Below, one piece after another: positions 1,496 to 61,897 of a DNA stretch of 64,000 bases. Position numbers and translations under genes: made by a program. This stretch comes from a virus (taxonomy: Duplodnaviria > Caudoviricetes), in IMG/VR virus record IMGVR_UViG_3300025676_000014, positions 6,306 to 70,305 of that record; one strand, 5' to 3'. The notes under the pieces are model-generated. The model was not told the DNA's origin. It did not search any database and worked only from the letters and a program-made list of their open reading frames with translations. Position 1 is the stretch's first letter, and each line of letters starts with the position of its first letter.

Positions 1496-1722
1496 ATGAG
1501 TGCTGCGGTAATGACTGCGGGTGTCATGAAACCCCAGAAGCAGACCCCAACGTCATTCTCGGAAAGATAAAATTGGAATACCTCCAACACAAGACAAGCA
1601 CGGCTGCAAAAATGAACAGCAACAAAGAGTACGAACTTGTTCCCACTAAAAATCTAGAACGGGGAGAGATGGTCTGGGTTATACAGCCTGACGACTCTTT
1701 CATCAAATACGAAATAATTTAA
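1492..1722 (+). CDS. hypothetical protein
   Basis: ORF translationally coupled (ATGA overlap) to clpP. Confidence 0.55.
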   Translation: MNECCGNDCGCHETPEADPNVILGKIKLEYLQHKTSTAAKMNSNKEYELVPTKNLERGEMVWVIQPDDSFIKYEII

Positions 1723-1724
1723 TT

Positions 1725-2849
1725 ATGAGAGCAGTCATTTGTGGAGTAGGGAGAATGGGAACGGCTATCGCTTGGGCGATGGACAAACTTGGTTATCATG
1801 TCACAGGGATGGATACTAACCCAGAAGCCGCAAATAATATACCACGGTCACGGGACTGGGGGGCGGTTCCTAATAGTGAATTTCTTATTGTAGATGACGC
1901 TGACGACATCACCAAGGGTCTTGCCGCCCAACGGAGGCCAGACATAGTGATAAGTAGCCTACCCTATCACCAAACAGAAAAGGTTGGTCATTGGTGCGTA
2001 GAAAATGGAGTCAGGTATTGTGATCTTGGCGGCAGGGTAGATGTCTCAGAGTCGATAAATAATTTAGCGAAAGAAAAAGCAACTAAACCCGTGTTCACTG
2101 ATTTAGGTTTAGCTCCAGGTTGGGTAAATATCCTAGCGGAAGAAGGGTACAAAAGTTTGTACGGGGGAAGCCAAATAACAAATATCAATATGATGGTCGG
2201 AGGGTTGCCAGACTACGATTTAAGCGTTCAAAACCCATTAAGATATTGCGTGAGTTGGTCTACGGACGGGCTAATTAACGAGTATAAAGATGACTGCATA
2301 ATACTTGAGAACGGCCAAATAAAAACGGTGAAAGGAATGGACGGGCTGGAAGATGTAGAATCCAGCAAACTTGGCAAGCTAGAAGCCTTTTACACTAGCG
2401 GGGGAGCGTCCCATTCGATTCACTCAATGAGAAAGCGCGGGGTAAATAATTGTTCTTATAAGACCTTGAGGTACAAAGGTCACGGCTCAATGATTAAGTT
2501 CTTAATAAGAGATTGCCAGCTTGACGACCAAACGCTAAATAAGATTTTCTTGGAGGGTTGCGGTCATTGCGAGAAGGACGAGGTGATTGTCATGGCGACT
2601 GTCGAGAAGGACAATAAGGTTTGGAGAGAAGAGAAATTAGTCAAGTCTGATGATAGATTTTCTGCCATGCAGAAAGCTACTGCGTTCTCTATTTCCTCAG
2701 TAGCTTCCATTATGGGGGAGGGTTATTTCGACAACAGAATAGCACAAAATCGTGGCGGGGATATGAAATTGCCACTTGCCTTGGCTTATGCAGACGTACC
2801 TCACGAAGAGTTTAACAGAAGATTAGAAATACTTGGAGTTTATAAATAA
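1725..2849 (+). CDS. saccharopine dehydrogenase / lysine 6-dehydrogenase family oxidoreductase
   Basis: Rossmann GVGRMG, YCDLGG, GLAPGWVN, VGGLP, WSTDGLINEY, YKTLRYKGH, AMQKATAF. Confidence 0.88.
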   Translation: MRAVICGVGRMGTAIAWAMDKLGYHVTGMDTNPEAANNIPRSRDWGAVPNSEFLIVDDADDITKGLAAQRRPDIVISSLPYHQTEKVGHWCVENGVRYCDLGGRVDVSESINNLAKEKATKPVFTDLGLAPGWVNILAEEGYKSLYGGSQITNINMMVGGLPDYDLSVQNPLRYCVSWSTDGLINEYKDDCIILENGQIKTVKGMDGLEDVESSKLGKLEAFYTSGGASHSIHSMRKRGVNNCSYKTLRYKGHGSMIKFLIRDCQLDDQTLNKIFLEGCGHCEKDEVIVMATVEKDNKVWREEKLVKSDDRFSAMQKATAFSISSVASIMGEGYFDNRIAQNRGGDMKLPLALAYADVPHEEFNRRLEILGVYK

Positions 2850-6273: not shown

Positions 6274-6322
6274 AAGAGGGGGCGTGGGTTAGTAGGTTTC
6301 CCCACGCCTCTTCTTTTTTTTT
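6274..6322 (+). terminator. intrinsic terminator after rIIA
   Basis: GC-rich stem (GGCGTGGG/CCCACGCC core) followed by a T-run. Confidence 0.7.
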
Positions 6323-6681: not shown

Positions 6682-7091
6682 CCAGCAGGTACTTTCGTAG
6701 GTTTAACATCTAATCGGTAGGGTTTTATTTTGTAATCAAAATTGGCTTTCTTCCCGTTTACATATACGATGCCATCACGTATTTCTATTACTTCCATAGG
6801 CATACCAACGATCCGCTTGACCATATATCCACCATCTTCTATGTCTCTTATTGTAACAACGTCCAGCCTATCCACAGTCGTATAATCGTAAAAAATTTTG
6901 TTGACAACAATCAGATCGCCGCTTTTAAGAGTGGGTTCCATACTGACCCCATCAGTGACGAAAACTTTATACCCCCTACTCCATACGAAAGAGATTGCTA
7001 TTGCCATGATGCACAACTTCATCATCACTGGCACGAACATGAATGAGCTATTATTTTTTGATGGGTTATTACTTTTCATCGCGTTCGTCAA
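6591..7091 (-). CDS. lepB: signal peptidase I (S26 family)
   Basis: N-terminal TM segment, DGVSMEPTL (catalytic Ser), VKRIVGMP (catalytic Lys), IGDN box E. Confidence 0.88.
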   Translation of the reverse strand: MTNAMKSNNPSKNNSSFMFVPVMMKLCIMAIAISFVWSRGYKVFVTDGVSMEPTLKSGDLIVVNKIFYDYTTVDRLDVVTIRDIEDGGYMVKRIVGMPMEVIEIRDGIVYVNGKKANFDYKIKPYRLDVKPTKVPAGCYFYIGDNMGETVWGIISDANIIGKVQSK

Positions 7092-16069: not shown

Positions 16070-16146
16070 GGGTGAGTAGCTCAATTGGATAGAGCATCTG
16101 CCTTCTAAGCAGAGGGTTGTGGGTTCGAGTCCCGCCTCACCTACCA
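16070..16146 (+). tRNA. tRNA-Arg (anticodon TCT)
   Basis: Cloverleaf: GGGTGAG/CTCACCT acceptor, GCTC/GAGC D-stem, TCTGC-CTTCTAA-GCAGA anticodon arm, GGTTCGAGTCC T-loop, encoded CCA. Confidence 0.95.
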
Positions 16147-16392: not shown

Positions 16393-16433
16393 GCCGGGCT
16401 GCCCGGCGGCCTGTCAAGCTTTTTTTATTCACA
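16393..16433. repeat. symmetric module copy 1 (right half only) with TTATTCACA box
   Basis: GCCGGGCTGCCCGGC-ggcct-GTCAAG-N6-TTATTCACA. Confidence 0.9.
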
Positions 16434-21285: not shown

Positions 21286-21322
21286 CTTGACATCCCGCCG
21301 GGCTGCCCGGCCAAAAGTCAAG
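21286..21322. repeat. symmetric module copy 4
   Basis: CTTGAC-atccc-GCCGGGCTGCCCGGC-caaaa-GTCAAG. Confidence 0.9.
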
Positions 21323-21364
21323 AACAAAATGAAAAAAACTTTCTTCAATTTAACTAAAAAAAAG

Positions 21365-21440
21365 CTTGTACCTAGAGCAAGGGTATGGCATAATTAAAGA
21401 CCAGTGAGGGTAACACCTCCAACGATCTTTGAAACAATTT
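21365..21440 (+). promoter_or_regulatory. sigma70 promoter, hairpin and boxA-like antitermination leader of an RNA operon
   Basis: TTGTAC-17-CATAAT; GAGG-GTAACA-CCTC hairpin 21406-21419; GATCTTTGAAA 21424-21434. Confidence 0.6.
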
Positions 21441-21442
21441 AA

Positions 21443-21580
21443 GCCACGGAAGTTGGTGCTGTTAAATGAAACGCAGCAGTCTTAAAGCCGAAAGCAGTTA
21501 CCTCTGGGGAGATATCCCAAACAAGGAGACTAGCTGGGAGTCGTAAGTCTTGGGGGCGGGGTTCGAATCCTCAACGTGGC
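21443..21580 (+). ncRNA. tRNA-like structured RNA (unit 1, 138 nt), not a canonical tRNA
   Basis: GCCACG/CGTGGC terminal helix, T-loop GGTTCGAATCC 21560-21570, TGCTG/CAGCA and AGTCT/AGACT helices. Confidence 0.65.
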
Positions 21581-21588
21581 AACAATTT

Positions 21589-21669
21589 ACTGGGAGGCGA
21601 AACACAGCCTTGGCAAGCCTAACGCAGCAAACGGGATACGCGTCCTGTTAGGGGCGAGGAAGCACCAGT
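21589..21669 (+). ncRNA. structured RNA unit 2
   Basis: ACTGG/CCAGT closing helix, AGGC/GCCT and CCTAAC/GTTAGG hairpins, AACAATTT linkers on both sides. Confidence 0.5.
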
Positions 21670-21679
21670 ATAACAATTT

Positions 21680-21901
21680 GGAGCATCGACGGATGTTCCA
21701 TCGGAGCGTAGTCTAATAATGGTTTGCAAGAGCCATAGGACACCGAAACAAAAAGCAGGAGATTATCAATCTCTGGGAGCCTAGTAGCACAGTTCGCGAG
21801 GACGCAGCTATGAAGTAAGTAGGGTACGAAGTACGTAGGGAAACTGAACTTTATCAGGCCCCGAAAGTAGTTGCAGGTAATAAAGAAATCCTGTCGTTCC
21901 A
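21680..21901 (+). ncRNA. structured RNA unit 3 (approx. 220 nt)
   Basis: Ends complementary (GGAG..CGACGG / CTGTCG.TTCC); internal hairpins GGAGCATC/GATGTTCC, ATGGTT/AGCCAT, GAGAT/ATCTC; no credible plus-strand ORF. Confidence 0.5.
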
Positions 21902-21959
21902 TTAATTTAGTAACAAAAAAAGCTTGCCACAGGGGCAAGGGTATGATAGGATTAGAACA

Positions 21960-22328
21960 ATGAAAGCAATAAAAATCGACGCGACCAACAGAACCATCAC
22001 CGAAGTCCAATACGATGACTTCAGAGACATTCAACGCCACATCGGCTGTGATACCTTCAGCCAAGGTATGCCCTTGCCAGAGGGTGATGTGCTTTGGGTA
22101 GACGATTGCGGTTGGATGACCGCCAAAAAGGCATTCACCTTTATGGGCAACGTGTTCGCTGGCAACGGGCTTATCACTGGCAGCGATGGGGATGGTGGGG
22201 GGAAGGATTGTCTTTGCAATGTTATGGCTGGTCAGCTTATGGCCAAGTTTATGGCAGGGGAAAAAGAAATCACTGACGATATGCGTGAACGAGCATTTGA
22301 CTCTTGGACAGTAACGGAGATTGAATAA
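21960..22328 (+). CDS. DUF3846-like phage protein (leaderless start)
   Basis: MKAIKIDA..RTITEV, IQ..IGC, VLWVDD.G, FAGNGLITG. Confidence 0.65.
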   Translation: MKAIKIDATNRTITEVQYDDFRDIQRHIGCDTFSQGMPLPEGDVLWVDDCGWMTAKKAFTFMGNVFAGNGLITGSDGDGGGKDCLCNVMAGQLMAKFMAGEKEITDDMRERAFDSWTVTEIE

Positions 22329-53964: not shown

Positions 53965-56900
53965 ATGGGAAAAGTATTTTTAAGAATTAATACCAACAAC
54001 AACGACGGAATTCCAACCGATGCGGTTTCCTTTGTTGACGGCGCAGGTTCGGCTGACCATACCGCCACTGGCGATGACTCTAAAAACCCGCGCGTAAAAG
54101 TTCTTACTCCGTCTGCGGAAGACTATACTCATAACGGCGGAACTGGTTTTACTGCTGACGCGATTATAATTCTCAACGAAGGCAGCACTACGGTAGGCAA
54201 GATCGACGCAATCAGGGTTTTGACTCGGGGCAGTGGTTATGGGACGGCAGATGGACCGAGCACTGCTCCGCCCCAAGTGACTTTCGGAAGCGAGATATTC
54301 ACCGCCGTTCTAGGAACGGGCGAACCCGATGCGGAGTCTGTTTTAATTGCTGAAAACGGGGGCAGAGTTAATACAGACACACTCTTTTTCGTCAAAAAAG
54401 GGGATGGCAAACCAGACGTGGGCAACGACGACTTTTCTGCTCTCTTTGGCGCAGGGGCGAACGAAATCAACGCTTCAGAGTTTGCAATTTTTAATCCATA
54501 CCAAAAACACATCGATTACGACGACTTGAAGGGTTTCGCGACGAACGTAATAACTACTGCGGGAGCCTTCGCCACCTTGAGCTCTATTGGTGAAATGCGT
54601 AGTCAAGTAACCGAAGCAAACAGAAAGATCGTCGCTAGTAATCTACAAGTTGATAAATTTAATTTAAGCTTAACGCAAGGCTACGAGTCGGAGCGCATTG
54701 CGGCGGAAGAAGCCGCCAGACAGGCTTTCGAAGATGATTTGGTTAACTTTCAAAACACCACTGGCAACGACATACTTCAGTTCAGCAATAACAACCCTGG
54801 GTCAAACGCTGTTGACCCCGTATGGCAATCTATAGCTACAACGATATCGAATTTATTACCGTTTTTTCAAGCGATTGCGAATATGACTGGTTCGCCAATC
54901 CCAGGCATAAATACAAACTTTAGCGGTAACCAAGACGCAATTAATTTTTACAACAGCCTTGACTCAACTGAAAACAGTCAGCGCTTTTTTCCATCAATGG
55001 GGTCGCCCCAATACCCTAGTAAACCAAATTTTTTATCGCAGAACAATAGCCGCGTGGCTATGCCAAAAAGTTTTGGCGCTTACGAAGGAATAGCTAAAGG
55101 GTTTATATATAAAGCTTTATGCTTTGCTGGTGTAGCCGCTTTGGGGCATTTATACGAACTCCTAAACAGAAGCAACAATTCAAGCAGTGAGACCTCGGTT
55201 ATAAAATTAAACCACTCGGCAAACTGTTTTGCCCCAAAAGACACCGATGGAGTTTTCGTGGAGTGGTTCAAAACAAACTGTAGACAGCACGACATAATTG
55301 GCGGCTTAAAGACCATGATATCTGGGGTCATTAGCATATTCAATTCCATAGTAGCTTCGTTGGGGGATAAAAACGGAATACTATCCGATGACGCCAGACA
55401 TATCGCCGCCCTGATGGCGGCGGCGGGTTCATCCTCAATGGTGGAAAGTTTAAAAAGCACTTACGTTTTACTTGGTGATTGGGTTGACGAAGCAAGAGCA
55501 AGCCCGCATTGGAACTCAGGAAGAGGCGCGTTTACCCCAGACGAAAGAGCCTACATCCAAAAGCTCGATATGATTCGCGGCATCATAGCCACTAAATTAG
55601 ATGAAATTGCATATCATTACAACGCTGAAAAATACGTGGCCAAACCACAAATTTTCAAAATTACAATGGCGGTGGGCTCAAAGGCAGGGTATGCTGAGGG
55701 GATCGGCGGGGAGTTTAATGGATTAGTTCATCCGAACGCCCCAGAGGATGGGACAAGTAGAGGCAGCTTCGAGAAGGAGAAAAATTTAGCCAGACAGACA
55801 GGGAGCACCGTTGATCCTCAATCGCCGCACGGCCAATGCGAAAGAGAGTCGATATTCTCAGGCGGTCCTTTATGCGAGATTTACGGAAACAAAACAACGG
55901 GCAAGCAAGCGCAAGTGGAGCTTGTGTTTGCCCTCAATGAAGCGGCGAGATCAGAACTTATAGACATAAAAATATTAGATCCTGGCTTCGGGTTCCTTTA
56001 CGCCCCAATAGTCAGACTCCACCCAGATGTTTGGATGAAACTTACTGGAGCAGCAAAAACTGTTATTGTCGAGTCTATCGGCGTTACGAAAGGTCCAGAC
56101 TTATCGAAAATAGGTTTAGCCAAAGAATCGCAAGAGCCGTTTAATGTCGCCATAGCGGAGATGGGGGCTCAAGCCGCCTTCAATAAGTGGACGGGCATTC
56201 AGGATGAATTAGTCGAATTCTCAAAAAGCTTAAATCGGCTCTTCGATACTGATTTATTGTCCACAAAAAATCTTGAAGGCAGCTCCCCGATGAGAAAAGT
56301 ATCTGATCTGAAATTAAATCCTATAAGAAAATCTTTTCATAGCGTGACCGATGATTCTTGGGAGCAAGCGGCGGCAGGGAGAAAGAGAGGGTTAAACTCC
56401 ATAGCCATAAGAACAAACATAATAGACAAAATAGCTGGAAAGGGCGTAAAGGGTACAGATTTATCTAAAAATAAGCTATGTGCCTTTGACTTTTTCCACT
56501 TCGACATCGGTAAATGTGACCCAGTAGAGATCACTTCGATGAATGACGACCTAGCTAATACATTCTTCAAAGACCCACAGTCTTACTTGTTGGCTACGGC
56601 AAAGCAAAAAATAAGCGAAAGCATTTGCCAGAAAAAAGCTTGCGGGGTCGTCCACGCTTACAGCGAAGCTCCGACTGTTGGCGAAGGCGATGATGCATTG
56701 TGCGGCAATTCAACTGTTACTTACAACATGCACCCGACAGCGGAGTGGTGGTTCAATTCGGACTCTGGCGGCGCTGGGATTATTAAAGAATTTCTTGGAA
56801 GCAGCGATATTAAAGAAGACATAAGAATTGGTAATGCAAAACCAAGTTGGGCCTCTTTCAATGCTGGCGCGCAAGGAGATAGCTCTTTGCCGCCTGTATT

Positions 56901-59900
56901 TGGCAACTGGGTTACTGCGTTTGATAACGATAAAAATGCGGCTGGTTTTTGGGGGAAACTGTTTAGGGGTTTGGTGAGAACGATCACCCTTGGGCAATAC
57001 GGTTTCGTCTTCGACCCAAGAGTTACTGTTCCAATAAATCAACCTGCTAAAGAATTACTAAATAATTATAATGATTTAAGACTTTACCCCTACAAAGAGT
57101 TTACTGAAATAAATTCCTCTTCAACAGTGTCGGTTTATGATTTTCTTGCTGAGGGGGACATCAAGAAGGATGGACACCTTGCGGGGCATAGGATAGGAGC
57201 CATAGCTCCCACCAAGCCTCTTCAGGGCGGCGCTTTTTGGGCGCAGGAAGATTCATCAAATTTCATAAAAAATCATCAAAAAAACTTAAAAGCCGCGTAC
57301 CAAATGGTCGCAGACAAAACTGGAATTTACGCTTGGGACGAGCTTAAAGAGGGCGCTTTAAAAATAGAACCAGTTCTATCGAAAAATTTAACGTTCTCTG
57401 GAATGTGCTACCCGCACGTAACGCAATACGATGTTGCAAAGAAAAGCTACTTGATTGGCACTGAATATGAACCGCTTGGAACATGGCATCCAACAGCAAA
57501 CACAGAGTGGCAACTAGAGCAGGAAATTTCGATAGGAAGAGACACTAACAATTCAGCAGATGATGGCAGTGCTGCTCATTTGCCGAAGGGGAATATGGTT
57601 CAAGCTACTCGGGCAAGCAGCCCCGTGAACACGCTGCCAAATGCAACCAGAAAAACACTGCACAAAGGGTTCGAAGCAAACAAAGAAGTTTACATAAGCA
57701 AAAACGCAGAATGGAAATCGTTAAGCGAGAAGCTTCACGGCTCGATTCTGCATGAGTCTGAAAAATGGCCACTCGTTCACATAGAGGATATTAGTTATCA
57801 CATCGAGATGACTAAAAGCGGGATTCCCGCTGGGGCTGGAGATTTTTTAATTGGAGATCTTCAATCCAAAAGCCAAGAAGATCTCAACAAAGCAACGATG
57901 GACGTTAAGGGCTATGTTGATCAAGCTACGACGAATCGGGGACTTGGCTACTGGGACAATGACGGCACAATGGAGCCTTTTGATAGTGACAATCTTAAAA
58001 GTAATTTTTCCATCCCTCACTCAAAAGACAAAAATACTAAAGGCGGCAACTCTATGATCTCTGGAGCCTTCTCCAGTACAGCTGGAGCAGCCTACACAAG
58101 CGCGGAAACTCAATACACAAAATATAAAAAATACATCAACATGTTCCACTACACTGGAGTCGCCAAGTACAAAGAAGGAACCAGATTTATAAGTGAGGAA
58201 GAGACTTTAGGAACTTACAAAAACCCGTGGGAAAAAACTGCTTATCATGCAACGAGTGGCCCAGAAGCGACCCAGCTCGCTTGGAATCAATTAGCCGCCG
58301 TTGAGGGTTGGAATACAGCGCAAACAACTCTCGCGTCAGACCTTAGCCCGCTAGCCGTCTCTGGAATAAAATCTGGGCCAGACTATGAAACAGCCGTATA
58401 TAATGCGGCGGAAAACACTTGGAGCCCAATTGACCCAAGTCTAGTGGGCTGGACTAATTATACCATCAATGGGGGTTTTTCCAAGGGGCACAATTTAACA
58501 GCCGCAAACAACGCGTTGGCTATAAAAAAAGCCGCCTTGAGTATTTACAGTGACGACGGCTGCGCTTGGCAAACTGCTCAAGTATCATTTAGCGGGTCAG
58601 TAACTGGAAGGGGAACATCTAAGACGATTGCTTTAACAGCGGCTATGACTGCTTTAAACGCTTATAGCGAGACGCAATACGATTTGTATGGCTCAGGAAT
58701 GAATGGCGATAGAATTAGCCCAGTAAATACAATGGGAACAGACAAGTATAACTTCTTTAATACGGGAGTTACGACATGGGAAGATGGCTCATCAGTGTCT
58801 CCAGTAGCTCTTTTTGACCCTTATGATAGCTCCTCCATGAACTTGGGGTGGACTAGTAGAATTTTATACAGAGCACTGAAATGCGGTTGTATTCCCGCTG
58901 AGCACGTTTGTGAAAGCGATATGACTGCGAGCTCTTGCCCAGAAATAAGCGCTAGCTCATCAATTCATGATCTGCACGACAACTGCGAGTCAACAGACTG
59001 TGAAGTCAGCGTTTTGGAGGACGGCGGATTGGGCGTCTCAACGAATTGGGTAACCGCCGTGGGTGATGTGAGAAATTCCATCTATGACGCTATAAGGACG
59101 AGGCTGGTCGCGCAGGAATATAATAACGCTAACAACACCTCGTGCAACACCCACGCTGCTGCTGGTGCTGTTGGGTCTTACAGCTTTAGCAACATAGGAA
59201 CAAGTCTAGCTGTGTATCCGAACTTTGGCGCGCTTTGCAACATCTCGGATAATTACACGGACATAAGTTGGCAAGATGGAAACGATGTGGGTACACCTCC
59301 CACTTGGAGCACAAACGGTTTACGCACCGCGTCACAAGCTGACGCGGCTATCTCCCACAGTGATGTTGGCGGCTTTAATATCTACCAAATTATTAATTTA
59401 AAAGATTGGACCGCAGGTACTGGAGATAAAGATATTTACGTAATGGAAGAAGTAGACATGATAAACGGGACCATCACCGACGGAAAAACCGAGTGCGACG
59501 GAACTGTGAGTGGTCGCAACGGAGACGCTAGGAGGGATTTAGTTAGGTATGGATATAGAACTGCTGTTTTCTCTCCTAATGACATGAGCGATCTTAATGG
59601 GGGGTGGGATGGAAGTTCAATATTGGGCACTACAACAACCCCTCTTATCGCTCCAGTTGTTATCACTGGCTCTGGTGACTGCCCACTTTACGACACGGAG
59701 ATATTCAAGACGGTTGTAACTGGCAGAATTGATAATTCTAAAGCTCAGTGCTTTATACCTTTAGCTGGGAATGAATACAAAGGCAGAATGATTGCTTCGG
59801 GTTACGTTCCTACTATAACTGGTATTTGCGACTGGTCTTCTAAAAAGCGGCAAATTTATTGGGATAAGACTTCAATCGACATGGGTCTAGTAGCACCAGA

Positions 59901-61128
59901 GGACTCTGCGGGTTGGGGGAGCGACTTAAAGAAACCATATATGAGCGGAACAGTTGACGCTAAGGAAAGCTATTTGGTAAATTACCCAAAAGGAATAAGT
60001 GGACTGTTTAGTCCCAAGGCTAGTATAACTGGCGCTGCCAAAGATGCGAAGGAGAAAAAATCTAAACCACACCAAACTTCGATCACGAAAAATACAGACT
60101 TAAATCAGCAAGTTAGCTCGCTTAAAATTTCAGGAATAAATTCATTGATAACCGTGCCAGGCGAAAAATACAGCCCAGTATTCTTAGGCGGGTGGCCAAT
60201 CAAAAACCAAACAAACGTAGACGCTAGTAAAAACTTTCAGGAAAAATCAGTATTTGGCAAGAAAGTTATAGTGCTTCAGCCCGCTGACCGCAGAAACGCG
60301 CCTGAACACTGGCAGGGAATAAAGAATAAGCAAGCGAAAATACTTAATCGGGCTTTATTTGGCAAAAGCAAAAGCAAAAAGGCCGAAGAAAAAGAATCCA
60401 ATATTGTGATCTTGACTAGCCAAAAGGATTTTCAGGAAGAAATTGCTAAAGCTAAAACTGCCCCCAACTTAGCCAATATGAAAAACGGCATAATAAAGAT
60501 AACTTTCAAAGGAAGCCTAGGTGGGATTTTGAGCTATACTAAAGGGGGCGGAAAAGAAATCAATTTGGACTCAAGTTATCTCTTGGGTGGCTCTCAGCAC
60601 GACGAATCAGACGGGACTTACAATTATGCTTATGTCGAGTTTGAGCTGCAAGCTGCCGCGTGCGATCAATGCATGGCTTCTCCAGTCGGAATAGGAACCA
60701 GCGACAATCATGTTGAAGCTGATGACGAAGTCGTGTTCTACGGTGAAAATTACAGACACATGGTTCAGGTTGATTGGGAGCTCCGATCAGGCGGGTGGGC
60801 ATTTGAGGTTCCATATCTTGAGCCAGGTGTGACCGTGGATCAGCAGGGCAAGCCAGTAACGACGCAGAACTGGTGGGATTATATCACTGATGACTTTATG
60901 ACCGCGTCACACGGAAATGCATATACAGGTCACTACGCGGCTTGGGGTATGCCTTTTGAGGGTGATACAACGCAATTAAATTGCACGTCTAACGAGAAGG
61001 GGGAAAACGATCAAGTGTCTAAATATGATAAAATATTCGATTTCCACTTAAATTTTAGTCAAGAAACAGCAAGCTATACAGCTCTCAAGAAGAACGGCGG
61101 AAATGAAATAAATTTTAAAAAACCTTAA
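53965..61128 (+). CDS. giant 2387-aa putative virion protein (possibly extended by splicing)
   Basis: Single open frame in the structural module; IRVLTRGSGY..PPQVTF and IKILDPGFGF..APIV motifs seen in phage tail/baseplate proteins; many Cys pairs. Confidence 0.75.
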   Translation: MGKVFLRINTNNNDGIPTDAVSFVDGAGSADHTATGDDSKNPRVKVLTPSAEDYTHNGGTGFTADAIIILNEGSTTVGKIDAIRVLTRGSGYGTADGPSTAPPQVTFGSEIFTAVLGTGEPDAESVLIAENGGRVNTDTLFFVKKGDGKPDVGNDDFSALFGAGANEINASEFAIFNPYQKHIDYDDLKGFATNVITTAGAFATLSSIGEMRSQVTEANRKIVASNLQVDKFNLSLTQGYESERIAAEEAARQAFEDDLVNFQNTTGNDILQFSNNNPGSNAVDPVWQSIATTISNLLPFFQAIANMTGSPIPGINTNFSGNQDAINFYNSLDSTENSQRFFPSMGSPQYPSKPNFLSQNNSRVAMPKSFGAYEGIAKGFIYKALCFAGVAALGHLYELLNRSNNSSSETSVIKLNHSANCFAPKDTDGVFVEWFKTNCRQHDIIGGLKTMISGVISIFNSIVASLGDKNGILSDDARHIAALMAAAGSSSMVESLKSTYVLLGDWVDEARASPHWNSGRGAFTPDERAYIQKLDMIRGIIATKLDEIAYHYNAEKYVAKPQIFKITMAVGSKAGYAEGIGGEFNGLVHPNAPEDGTSRGSFEKEKNLARQTGSTVDPQSPHGQCERESIFSGGPLCEIYGNKTTGKQAQVELVFALNEAARSELIDIKILDPGFGFLYAPIVRLHPDVWMKLTGAAKTVIVESIGVTKGPDLSKIGLAKESQEPFNVAIAEMGAQAAFNKWTGIQDELVEFSKSLNRLFDTDLLSTKNLEGSSPMRKVSDLKLNPIRKSFHSVTDDSWEQAAAGRKRGLNSIAIRTNIIDKIAGKGVKGTDLSKNKLCAFDFFHFDIGKCDPVEITSMNDDLANTFFKDPQSYLLATAKQKISESICQKKACGVVHAYSEAPTVGEGDDALCGNSTVTYNMHPTAEWWFNSDSGGAGIIKEFLGSSDIKEDIRIGNAKPSWASFNAGAQGDSSLPPVFGNWVTAFDNDKNAAGFWGKLFRGLVRTITLGQYGFVFDPRVTVPINQPAKELLNNYNDLRLYPYKEFTEINSSSTVSVYDFLAEGDIKKDGHLAGHRIGAIAPTKPLQGGAFWAQEDSSNFIKNHQKNLKAAYQMVADKTGIYAWDELKEGALKIEPVLSKNLTFSGMCYPHVTQYDVAKKSYLIGTEYEPLGTWHPTANTEWQLEQEISIGRDTNNSADDGSAAHLPKGNMVQATRASSPVNTLPNATRKTLHKGFEANKEVYISKNAEWKSLSEKLHGSILHESEKWPLVHIEDISYHIEMTKSGIPAGAGDFLIGDLQSKSQEDLNKATMDVKGYVDQATTNRGLGYWDNDGTMEPFDSDNLKSNFSIPHSKDKNTKGGNSMISGAFSSTAGAAYTSAETQYTKYKKYINMFHYTGVAKYKEGTRFISEEETLGTYKNPWEKTAYHATSGPEATQLAWNQLAAVEGWNTAQTTLASDLSPLAVSGIKSGPDYETAVYNAAENTWSPIDPSLVGWTNYTINGGFSKGHNLTAANNALAIKKAALSIYSDDGCAWQTAQVSFSGSVTGRGTSKTIALTAAMTALNAYSETQYDLYGSGMNGDRISPVNTMGTDKYNFFNTGVTTWEDGSSVSPVALFDPYDSSSMNLGWTSRILYRALKCGCIPAEHVCESDMTASSCPEISASSSIHDLHDNCESTDCEVSVLEDGGLGVSTNWVTAVGDVRNSIYDAIRTRLVAQEYNNANNTSCNTHAAAGAVGSYSFSNIGTSLAVYPNFGALCNISDNYTDISWQDGNDVGTPPTWSTNGLRTASQADAAISHSDVGGFNIYQIINLKDWTAGTGDKDIYVMEEVDMINGTITDGKTECDGTVSGRNGDARRDLVRYGYRTAVFSPNDMSDLNGGWDGSSILGTTTTPLIAPVVITGSGDCPLYDTEIFKTVVTGRIDNSKAQCFIPLAGNEYKGRMIASGYVPTITGICDWSSKKRQIYWDKTSIDMGLVAPEDSAGWGSDLKKPYMSGTVDAKESYLVNYPKGISGLFSPKASITGAAKDAKEKKSKPHQTSITKNTDLNQQVSSLKISGINSLITVPGEKYSPVFLGGWPIKNQTNVDASKNFQEKSVFGKKVIVLQPADRRNAPEHWQGIKNKQAKILNRALFGKSKSKKAEEKESNIVILTSQKDFQEEIAKAKTAPNLANMKNGIIKITFKGSLGGILSYTKGGGKEINLDSSYLLGGSQHDESDGTYNYAYVEFELQAAACDQCMASPVGIGTSDNHVEADDEVVFYGENYRHMVQVDWELRSGGWAFEVPYLEPGVTVDQQGKPVTTQNWWDYITDDFMTASHGNAYTGHYAAWGMPFEGDTTQLNCTSNEKGENDQVSKYDKIFDFHLNFSQETASYTALKKNGGNEINFKKP

Positions 61129-61169
61129 TAGGTGAAAAAAGAAATTGATAAGAAATAATTGGAAAACCT

Positions 61170-61415
61170 CAATTAATTGGGGTAACATACATTAAGATTG
61201 GCCATATTGGGTGAATTCGGTGAAACTCTTAGAGATAAGACAATACCGAGCCAAGCTAGAGACGGGTTTAAACTCTCTAGAAGGTGTAGAGACTAGGCGG
61301 TGAGTCCCAACGATAACCCGCCCACGAGCGCCCAACACCGAAAGGTGAAGATATAGTCCGAACTGCGTGGTGACGCGCAGAAGCTGTAATTAAAAAAGCA
61401 GTGATAACATAATTG
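61170..61415 (+). ncRNA. group I self-splicing intron without homing endonuclease (alternative 5' end at 61126)
   Basis: P GAATTCGGTGAAA 61213, Q AATACCGAGCCAAG 61242, R GGTGTAGAGACTA 61283, S GAAGATATAGTCC 61347; P3 TTGGGT/GCCCAA; P8 CACC-GAAA-GGTG; P9 hairpin; terminal TTG. Confidence 0.92.
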
Positions 61416-61493
61416 GGTCACCTTGAAGCTGCCATGTACAAATGTGCTTCTAGGCAAGTTGCCACTTGTTTAAGCTGTCAGGGTATCGGCTAA
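61416..61493 (+). CDS. putative 3' exon GHLEAAMYKCASRQVATCLSCQGIG
   Basis: In frame with the 2387-aa ORF if splicing occurs at CCT|TAA (61125/61126). Confidence 0.45.
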   Translation, partial: GHLEAAMYKCASRQVATCLSCQGIG

Positions 61494-61513
61494 ACCAAAT
61501 AAAGGAAGTAAAT

Positions 61514-61897
61514 ATGCCAAGGAAAAAGGAAAACAAAACAACGAAAGCTAGCCAAAAAAAGAGCGCGAATTTAAAAGATTTGTCTCAAGCCCACGGAAAA
61601 GAAGAGGAGGTCCAATCAACAAGCTTGGATCAAATCTGGGGTGATACTGGCGTAGGAAAATACAAAACCCTCAACAGAGATGAGTACGAGACTCAGCTTA
61701 GCGACATGAACAAAAGCGATCTTCAGACCCACGCCACGAAGGTAGGCTTGGTTCCCGTAGATGACGCTGGACTATTGAGAAAAAGACTTCTGAGAGAGTT
61801 CTCAAAACATATTTCAGCCTATAAAGTACCCCAAACAAACACTGGGGACAAAAAAATGTCAAAAGCTGCCTTTAAAATACTTAGCGAGGGAAAATAA
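61514..61897 (+). CDS. hypothetical protein with LEM/SAP-like helix-extension-helix
   Basis: LSDMNKSDLQTHATKVGL; ATG at 61514. Confidence 0.6.
   Translation: MPRKKENKTTKASQKKSANLKDLSQAHGKEEEVQSTSLDQIWGDTGVGKYKTLNRDEYETQLSDMNKSDLQTHATKVGLVPVDDAGLLRKRLLREFSKHISAYKVPQTNTGDKKMSKAAFKILSEGK

Follow-up and report, generated by a model that had tools for sequence, protein, structure and literature searches.

Natural RNAs that copy the upper half of transfer RNA (tRNA) are few, the closest described being the tRNA-like domain of transfer-messenger RNA (tmRNA) and the species 1 RNA of phage T4 (rnaC), a small stable RNA of 139 nucleotides (nt) that is located in the tRNA/small-RNA transcription unit of the T4 tRNA cluster and is reportedly cut by RNase P. 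YrlA and other bacterial Y RNAs are noncoding RNAs that imitate the T arm and elbow of tRNA; YrlA pairs its two ends into the helix that binds Ro and carries its tRNA-like part in the interior. In the engineered tRNA scaffold, the anticodon arm is swapped for a cargo, and the acceptor stem, T arm and elbow are kept for processing and protection. Here, we analyzed a 64,000-nt stretch of phage DNA (hereafter, the window; positions 6,306 to 70,305 of the IMG/VR record IMGVR_UViG_3300025676_000014, Caudoviricetes), in which an earlier note had described, at 21443-21580, a 138-nt tRNA mimic that has a perfect T-loop and an enlarged body but lacks CCA. Judged by sequence comparison, positions 21443-21581 (plus strand) are confirmed as a real small-RNA gene that copies the tRNA upper half and carries a fast-changing body in place of the anticodon arm. 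The comparison further shows that this element belongs to an uncatalogued phage small-RNA family built on the same plan, and that it is one cassette of an RNA-only operon of ~510 nt in an uncultured marine phage. The family alignment, the covariation counts, the leave-one-out test, the common architecture and the evidence for cassette swapping are new here.

The ends of the element form an acceptor-type stem in which positions 1-7 (21443-21449) pair with 21574-21580, followed by a discriminator A (21581) after which CCA is absent. The terminal helix GCCACG/CGTGGC (21443-21448 and 21575-21580) and the 3' end GGC-A-ACA are present as the note had read them; in the window, the stem has 6 base pairs (bp) plus a G-A opposition. 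The 5' strand leads into a single-stranded D-loop analogue, AAGTTGG (21450-21456), with G13 and G14 at 21455-21456, and then into hairpin H1 (21457-21478), which occupies the D-arm slot and is closed by the D-like hairpin of the note, TGCTG/CAGCA (21457-21461 with 21474-21478). The anticodon-arm slot is filled by a domain at 21479-21557, folded with RNAalifold on five type-I members, that comprises helix P2, formed by (G)TCTTAA (21479-21485) and TTGGGG(C) (21550-21557), an invariant GAAAG (21490-21494), the hairpin CTC-TGGGG..CCCA-AACAAG-GAG (~21503-21528) and the linker GAGTCGTAAG. P2, weak and G-U-rich in the window, comes directly after H1, and the 3' strand of P2 runs straight into the T stem, a variable loop being absent. 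The T arm (21558-21572) pairs GGGG with CCTC around the loop TTCGAAT (21562-21568), giving a T stem of 4 bp plus a C-A mismatch at 49:65, and contains the canonical T-loop GGTTCGAATCC (21560-21570) that had been noticed before. All of these features are on the plus strand. Two other helices proposed from the single sequence were abandoned: the GTTG/CAAC extension of the terminal helix would use the conserved TTGG and the 3' strand of the T stem, which are not complementary in relatives, and the AGTCT/AGACT helix has no partner in the six type-I relatives checked (-38.3 vs. -40.9 kcal/mol for the P2 pairing). The tRNA-like fold including P2 lies 3.7 kcal/mol above the minimum free energy (MFE), and the single-sequence fold is unremarkable (z = -1.18, not significant), so that the case rests on comparison with relatives.

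The family comprises 16 distinct sequences of 107-174 nt from marine phage and metagenome contigs. A metagenome scan for the T-loop, CAATTT and the start of the following module (module B, described below) yielded 20 marine loci with such an element. In a related phage record (G013) and in the 176-kb contig behind locus L215, the same slot holds a 155-167-nt element with a T arm and the terminal helix GTTGGTG/CACCGAC or GTTGGTG/CACCAGC, and further members were found on a viral contig (L194) and by a model search of related records (L351). The T-loop plus CAATTT pattern was too loose, returning mostly ordinary tRNAs in gut phages and one true member (L194); an exact 23-mer of the T arm and acceptor had no match in IMG/VR, and the neighbouring proteins (a 122-amino-acid protein and a cell-wall hydrolase), used as queries, led to relatives without the module.

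In a MAFFT alignment of 14 sequences, evaluated against 500 shuffles and a partner-sliding control, 97.4% of the cells of the acceptor stem (7 pairs) and the T stem (4 pairs) were paired, compared to 82% in shuffled alignments and 40-59% with a slid partner. Six of these 11 pairs change on both sides, including all of acceptor pairs 2-6, and the covariation score was reached by none of the 500 shuffles, so both the acceptor stem and the T stem covary. For the body, RNAalifold on the five type-I members recovered P2, P4 and P5, with 18 of 37 pairs changing on both sides. A leave-one-out covariance model built from 14 relatives, with the window excluded, matched 21443-21581 over its full length (model positions 1-155 of 155) with 45.7 bits (E = 2.7 × 10−9); the only other listed match in the 64 kb was a 15-nt fragment (E = 8.6). 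Nothing at E < 1 was found among hundreds of ordinary tRNAs in ~1.3 Mb of other loci. Our own descriptor scan was unspecific, with 23 matches in shuffled sequence. The reading of the element as a tRNA mimic, enlarged in its body and lacking CCA, is thus correct and backed by covariation.

All members follow a common plan, which consists of the acceptor stem, single-stranded ARRTTGG, H1, P2 and GAAAG, followed by a body of mosaic make-up, the T arm and the 3' acceptor strand with A73. T12, G13 and G14 are invariant in 14 of 14 aligned sequences; among the 16 members, the GG stands at 13-14 in 12 and at 14-15 in the other four, which have one extra base. The discriminator is A in 16 of 16, followed by N-CAATTT (CAAATTT in one member), and CCA is encoded in none (0/16). 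Eleven of the 16 members have 12 nt from the T loop to the discriminator (7+5, the tRNA value) and the other five have 13 nt; G53-C61 and the TTCGA of the loop never vary, and pair 50:64 is G-C, C-G or A-U. Pair 3:70 is C-G in the window, in agreement with the earlier reading that a G3:U70 pair is absent, and C-G, U-A or U-G across the family, and no acceptor-stem identity set is kept beyond A73. The closing stem of H1 covaries and takes the forms TGTGCA/TGCACA, TGCGC/GCGCA, TGCTAT/ATAGCA, TGTTGCT/GGCGACA and GTTGCT/GGCAAC in relatives.

Distal to P2 come the invariant GAAAG, the body and an ACGATA-type linker. GAAAG and the T-loop are 51-67 nt apart in the 14 members measured, and the 5' part ranges from 15 to 73 nt. 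The bodies are mosaics. The window body type is common to L249, L250, L253, L260 and L351, and the closing pairs of its hairpin (CTC-UGGGG..CCCA-AACAAG-GAG) covary (CTC/GAG vs. CGC/GCG); L265 and L351 mix parts of different types, and the smallest member, at 107 nt, has only ~44 nt of body. Conservation reaches well beyond the T-loop, to TTGG, GAAAG, H1, P2 and the ACGATA-type linker. The element also has the position typical of the family, behind a boxA-like leader or spacer and ahead of ACAATTT plus module B or a manA RNA. A tRNA carrying an insertion, which the note had offered as one explanation, does not fit, because an anticodon arm and a D stem are missing from every relative and the non-tRNA plan is kept by all 16.

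The family is absent from Rfam 15, and limited literature searches found no published description of the module; the 2023 catalogue of ~8,500 IMG/VR RNA candidates (PMC10690425) was not compared motif by motif. A scan of GTDB genomes for the pattern TTGGTG..GAAAGC..T-loop, of limited sensitivity, gave 78 matches, of which only six also had the terminal helix; among these six, L296, L300 and L343 were unmatched by model R1 and two others were ordinary tRNAs, so that no cellular homologue was seen. The L296 stretch, on a contig of a metagenome-assembled genome of Pirellulaceae (~6817-6970, reverse strand), is a 154-nt intergenic sequence, CGACGC-AAGTTGGTG...GAAAGC...GGTTCGAATCC...GCGTCG, that looks superficially family-like; its T stem is poor. 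Separately, unrelated phage contigs contain sequences of 109-113 nt that are shaped like tRNA but are not called by ARAGORN (L151, 2157-2267, plus strand; L127, 5812-5920, plus strand; L199, 553-665, reverse-complement coordinates); one of them has a TTCAACT T loop and an encoded CCA, and two resemble class II tRNAs with an insertion.

Comparison with described RNAs shows which parts of tRNA are retained. At the flagged site, neither ARAGORN (tRNA, tmRNA and intron modes) nor Rfam 15 (E ≤ 10) gave a tRNA, tmRNA or Y-RNA call, and thus no ordinary or intron-containing tRNA. The layout of a 7-bp acceptor stem on a 5-bp T stem with a TTCRANN-type T-loop is present; a cloverleaf with an anticodon stem-loop and a D stem is not, and the GG strand with H1, and P2 with a 70-nt body, stand there instead. 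The tRNA-like domain of tmRNA is similar: a 7-bp acceptor stem made by the RNA ends stacks on a canonical T arm, the D region is stemless with GG at 13-14, the anticodon arm has given way to a long helix that opens into a larger body, and the discriminator is A. By these criteria the phage RNA matches the domain, as a resemblance only: the phage RNA lacks G3-U70, the pseudoknot ring and a tag frame, has an extra hairpin (H1) between the GG and the long helix, and is only 107-174 nt long. We therefore rule out tmRNA itself, given the missing G3-U70 pair and tag frame, the small size and the lack of a model match; the earlier statement that there is no tag reading frame agrees with ARAGORN -m, which is negative even at the 80% threshold.

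T4 rnaC is likewise phage-encoded and of similar length, has a T arm with GGTTCGAATCC and encodes no CCA; it differs in its weak terminal helix (two U-U mismatches), the lack of a TTGG strand and another body. At E < 1, model R1 matches nothing in the tRNA region of T4 (L270), and the common T arm is generic to tRNA, so we see no sign of homology in that region. The engineered scaffold has the same design, a payload in the anticodon-arm slot of a kept tRNA upper half, but it is man-made and has a normal D arm, whereas the phage RNA has the GG strand and a hairpin and its processing is only proposed. The analogy to YrlA and other Y RNAs drawn in the note fails on topology, because the ends of the phage RNA form an acceptor stem rather than a Ro-binding stem; there is also no Rfam match, and the Ro60/TROVE gene that the note suggested looking for (PF05731) was not found in four related phage records (G000, G025, G013 and G028), whereas control genomes respond; with records only 34-96% complete, this says little. 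A Y RNA is ruled out. Covariation of the 5' strand with the 3' strand likewise rules out a host tRNA or tmRNA remnant at attP.

The window comes from a 70-kb IMG/VR phage contig estimated to be 44% complete, which encodes a T4-type terminase and tail genes, the terminase being only ~23% identical to that of any cultured phage. BLAST against cultured phages gave no match for the window region, for a relative's tRNA-like module plus module B, or for a relative's manA. Positions 21357-21954 hold no credible reading frame and are flanked by two promoter-like repeat copies, which form a direct repeat with 75% identity. The first (21357-21396, plus strand) starts the RNA-only unit and contains an A-run, a short stem-loop and TGn-CATAAT (21389-21394); the second (21915-21954, plus strand), which the promoter scan calls as TTGCCA-17-TAGGAT, closes the unit and opens the next gene (ATG at 21960). 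Relatives have TTGACA or TTGACT and a -10 box at an equal distance from the leader. Between the two copies, the order is promoter, hairpin plus boxA/spacer-like leader, tRNA-like RNA, a 79-nt module B and a manA-like module C, the modules being separated by ACAATTT(A). The spacer AACAATTTA at 21581-21589 (plus strand) is the second of three copies (21433, 21581 and 21672); AACAATTT, which stands between modules B and C, occurs seven times in the window, with three of these within 250 nt on one strand of the RNA unit.

Module B (21590-21668, plus strand) is a strongly conserved structured RNA known from 11 distinct versions with compensatory changes (CUGG/CCAG vs. CUCG/CGAG; GGC/GCC vs. GAC/GUC; inner hairpin swapped). 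It has no Rfam match, and a pattern for it gave 0 matches in GTDB genomes. In most units, it sits between the tRNA-like module and manA, the RNA that holds the last slot of the operon (RF01745); the tRNA-like module itself has no manA match. In the window, that slot is occupied by module C (~226 nt; 21679-21904, plus strand), which scores 20.5 bits (E = 0.014) with RF01745, short of the gathering score of 55.2 bits; the same variant is found in L252 (24.0 bits) and L249 (20.8 bits), and canonical manA with 60-70 bits fills the slot in L214, L215, L244, L246, L260, L262 and L265. Module C is probably a divergent branch of manA, and this branch may be an uncatalogued one.

The leader (21404-21441, plus strand) consists of the hairpin GAGG-GTAACA-CCTC (21406-21419) and GATCTTTGAAACAATTTA (21424-21441), a succession like the boxA and spacer of ribosomal RNA (rrn) operons. 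The hairpin covaries among relatives (GAGG/CCTC vs. AGGG/CCCT, with GNRA loops), and the 17-mer of the leader is kept in L214, L215, L244 and many metagenome loci. The leader of Escherichia coli rrnG reads CAC-UGCUCUUUA-ACAAUUUA, and its spacer ACAAUUUA is bound by NusA (PMC2724277). The spacer of the phage leader is identical to ACAAUUUA in 8 of 8 positions, whereas the boxA-like part has only UCUUU in common with UGCUCUUUA, plus two extra bases. The two leaders thus share a hairpin, a ..UCUUU..-type boxA-like stretch and then ACAAUUUA, and both units are untranslated; they differ in the boxA core (AUCUUUGA in the phage, UGCUCUUUA in rrn) and in that ACAAUUU(A) recurs between the modules of the phage unit. 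The resemblance, seen in sequence, is real, and we infer from this analogy that the phage leader may act in antitermination. The 17-mer GATCTTTGAAACAATTT with a preceding small hairpin also heads other uncatalogued noncoding RNA arrays on unrelated marine phage contigs (L221-L240), which start right after gene ends; one of these arrays (L228) ends with an abiF RNA and a true tRNA, and in a third group of contigs GATCTTTGAAACAATTT is located inside a coding gene.

The tRNA-like module, the 79-nt RNA and manA behave as exchangeable cassettes, as comparison of related loci shows. The window and L252 are 97% identical over 200 nt upstream of the tRNA-like element and 93% identical over 330 nt downstream, and the element between, 107 nt in L252, is 59% identical. 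Module B is identical in the window and in several loci with a different tRNA-like module. In G025 (162 kb, 96% complete), modules B and C are present at 82% identity and the flagged element is absent, as it also is in L210 and L214; in L194 and L351, the tRNA-like module stands directly before manA, without module B. A model search of 34 related phage records found the element in 4, and in 0 of the 3 near-complete ones. A single ornate RNA of 510 nt is ruled out, because the modules are gained and lost independently. In G007 (L351, ~1660-1750, minus strand), a further uncatalogued module of ~90 nt (AAGTTGGGCC...CCCCAACTG) stands after the spacer and ahead of the tRNA-like module.

Contigs from RNA libraries of four metatranscriptome studies, from which ends, strand and level are not readable and in which DNA carry-over is possible, add to this pattern. 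One of them has the ends of the window element around a different 128-nt body, and others switch modules exactly at the spacers (21436, 21579/80, 21584 and 21679). One contig of 151 nt matches 21412-21562 without differences, which, given possible carry-over, is weak evidence for an RNA. Positions 21300-21395 are not covered by the contigs, a gap to which we give no weight.

As to function, we consider it about an even bet (probability roughly 0.5) that the tRNA upper half serves as a processing and stability handle for a variable payload. Under this proposal, the leader would shield the untranslated transcript from Rho, as in rRNA operons, and the tRNA upper half would pass the module off as a pre-tRNA to the tRNA enzymes of the host. 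RNase P would cut before G21443, the 3' end would be trimmed at A21581, and CCA may be added; a compact, nuclease-resistant RNA would be released, the variable body of which would be the working payload. The tRNA part would then be a natural counterpart of the engineered scaffold, with excision and stabilization by host enzymes as for that scaffold and T4 rnaC. The tRNA parts that are kept are those recognised by RNase P, 3'-trimming enzymes, the CCA-adding enzyme and T-loop modifiers. A gene for a CCA-adding enzyme was not found in the four phage records, which are incomplete, so that this says little.

Several observations weigh against the handle proposal. The 3' CCA used by bacterial RNase P RNA is not encoded, yet the phage's tRNA-Arg at 16070 does encode CCA. 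The junction of acceptor and T stem is mismatched in the window (G7-A66 and C49-A65), position 8 is A rather than U, and the single-sequence MFE structure lacks the T arm. The RNA-library contigs run across both ends predicted for the RNA, which would be expected of a precursor or of DNA contamination. Units without the tRNA-like module still have module B and manA, so that the module is not needed for processing these. Finally, a pure scaffold role leaves the fast turnover of the body unexplained.

That turnover would be accounted for by an arms race if the RNA were a decoy or sponge, its tRNA elbow and acceptor end soaking up a host factor that reads those parts, such as a defence toxin that modifies or cuts tRNA acceptor ends, or a tRNA-processing or tRNA-binding protein. 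The determinants of the upper half are strictly kept, with free variation elsewhere; exchange of the module between near-identical phages and its patchy presence are typical of counter-defence cargo; and it lies in an early-type cassette region bounded by promoter stem-loop repeats. However, the acceptor sequence varies freely, so that no one tRNA is imitated, and no partner defence gene or protein was identified. The note had proposed a decoy against anticodon nucleases or RelA/ribosome sensing, which is unlikely because there is no anticodon stem-loop, so that the RNA would be useless against anticodon nucleases or codon-dependent sensors. A decoy for factors reading the elbow or the acceptor end is possible, even if we would put our money elsewhere.

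The manA RNA is reported to self-assemble in vitro into RNA-only cages (2026 preprint, 10.64898/2026.07.01.735769), and the tRNA-shaped RNA could be a cargo, cap, adaptor or assembly regulator of the co-transcribed manA-type RNA. manA or a manA-like RNA follows in every locus with a readable downstream part, either directly (L194 and L351) or after module B. However, the preprint mentions no tRNA or partner RNA, many manA units have no tRNA-like module, and no complementarity or co-variation between the modules was found, although no systematic test was made; we regard this role as distinctly doubtful. That marine phages field fast-evolving half-tRNAs, reduced to the tRNA parts that processing enzymes and host defences directed at the acceptor end or elbow read, and use them either to blunt tRNA-targeting immunity or to load and regulate manA RNA cages is a broader conjecture, speculative and rather unlikely; if true, it would reveal a new class of RNA-based phage-host weaponry produced from rRNA-style antiterminated RNA operons.

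A role as a tmRNA-like translation factor, in which the RNA would acquire CCA, be aminoacylated and enter ribosomes as a tag-less tmRNA or a minimal tRNA-like domain, is very improbable. In its favour, the RNA has the topology of the tRNA-like domain, and tmRNA genes do occur in marine myophages (PMC9004378). Against it, a resume codon is lacking along with G3-U70 and a tag frame, ARAGORN and Rfam give no tmRNA match, acceptor identity beyond A73 is not conserved, and the smallest body has only ~44 nt; a search for SmpB in the four phage records was also negative, which says little because the records are incomplete. Least credible is a decayed or intron-bearing tRNA gene, or a chance T-loop beside a chance helix: the single-sequence z of only -1.18 would suit chance, and ARAGORN, relaxed to 80%, reports at 21497-21581 a tRNA-Thr(cgt) that has a 9-nt intron and re-uses the T arm. 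However, this call depends on a 5' strand other than the conserved, covarying one and is rejected; default ARAGORN and Rfam are negative, and 16 variants keep the non-tRNA plan by compensatory changes (leave-one-out E = 2.7 × 10−9).

The interest of the family comes chiefly from its constant proximity to the manA RNA, which has been an orphan motif since 2010 and is now reported in RNA cages, so that its constant companions are the most direct leads to the role of these assemblies in infection. The family adds a covariation-supported case to the few natural copies of the tRNA upper half, and its loci show entire structured-RNA operons, placed behind rRNA-like leaders, in uncultured marine phages. 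At 107-174 nt, the module is small enough for bench tests of RNase P cleavage, addition of CCA, partner binding and co-assembly with manA.

Elsewhere in the window, the only true tRNA called by ARAGORN is the tRNA-Arg(TCT) at 16070-16146, which has an encoded CCA and is followed by ~600 nt of AT-rich, gene-free DNA. A GC-rich palindrome, CCGGGCTGCCCGG, together with TTGACA-like boxes, recurs at cassette boundaries (21296-21312, 16393-16412 and, in L351, ~1210-1230). A group I intron (RF00028, 76 bits) at 61104-61380 starts in the last 25 nt of an open reading frame of 2387 amino acids (53965-61128) and ends before one of 143 amino acids (61466-61897), a placement that suggests an interrupted gene.

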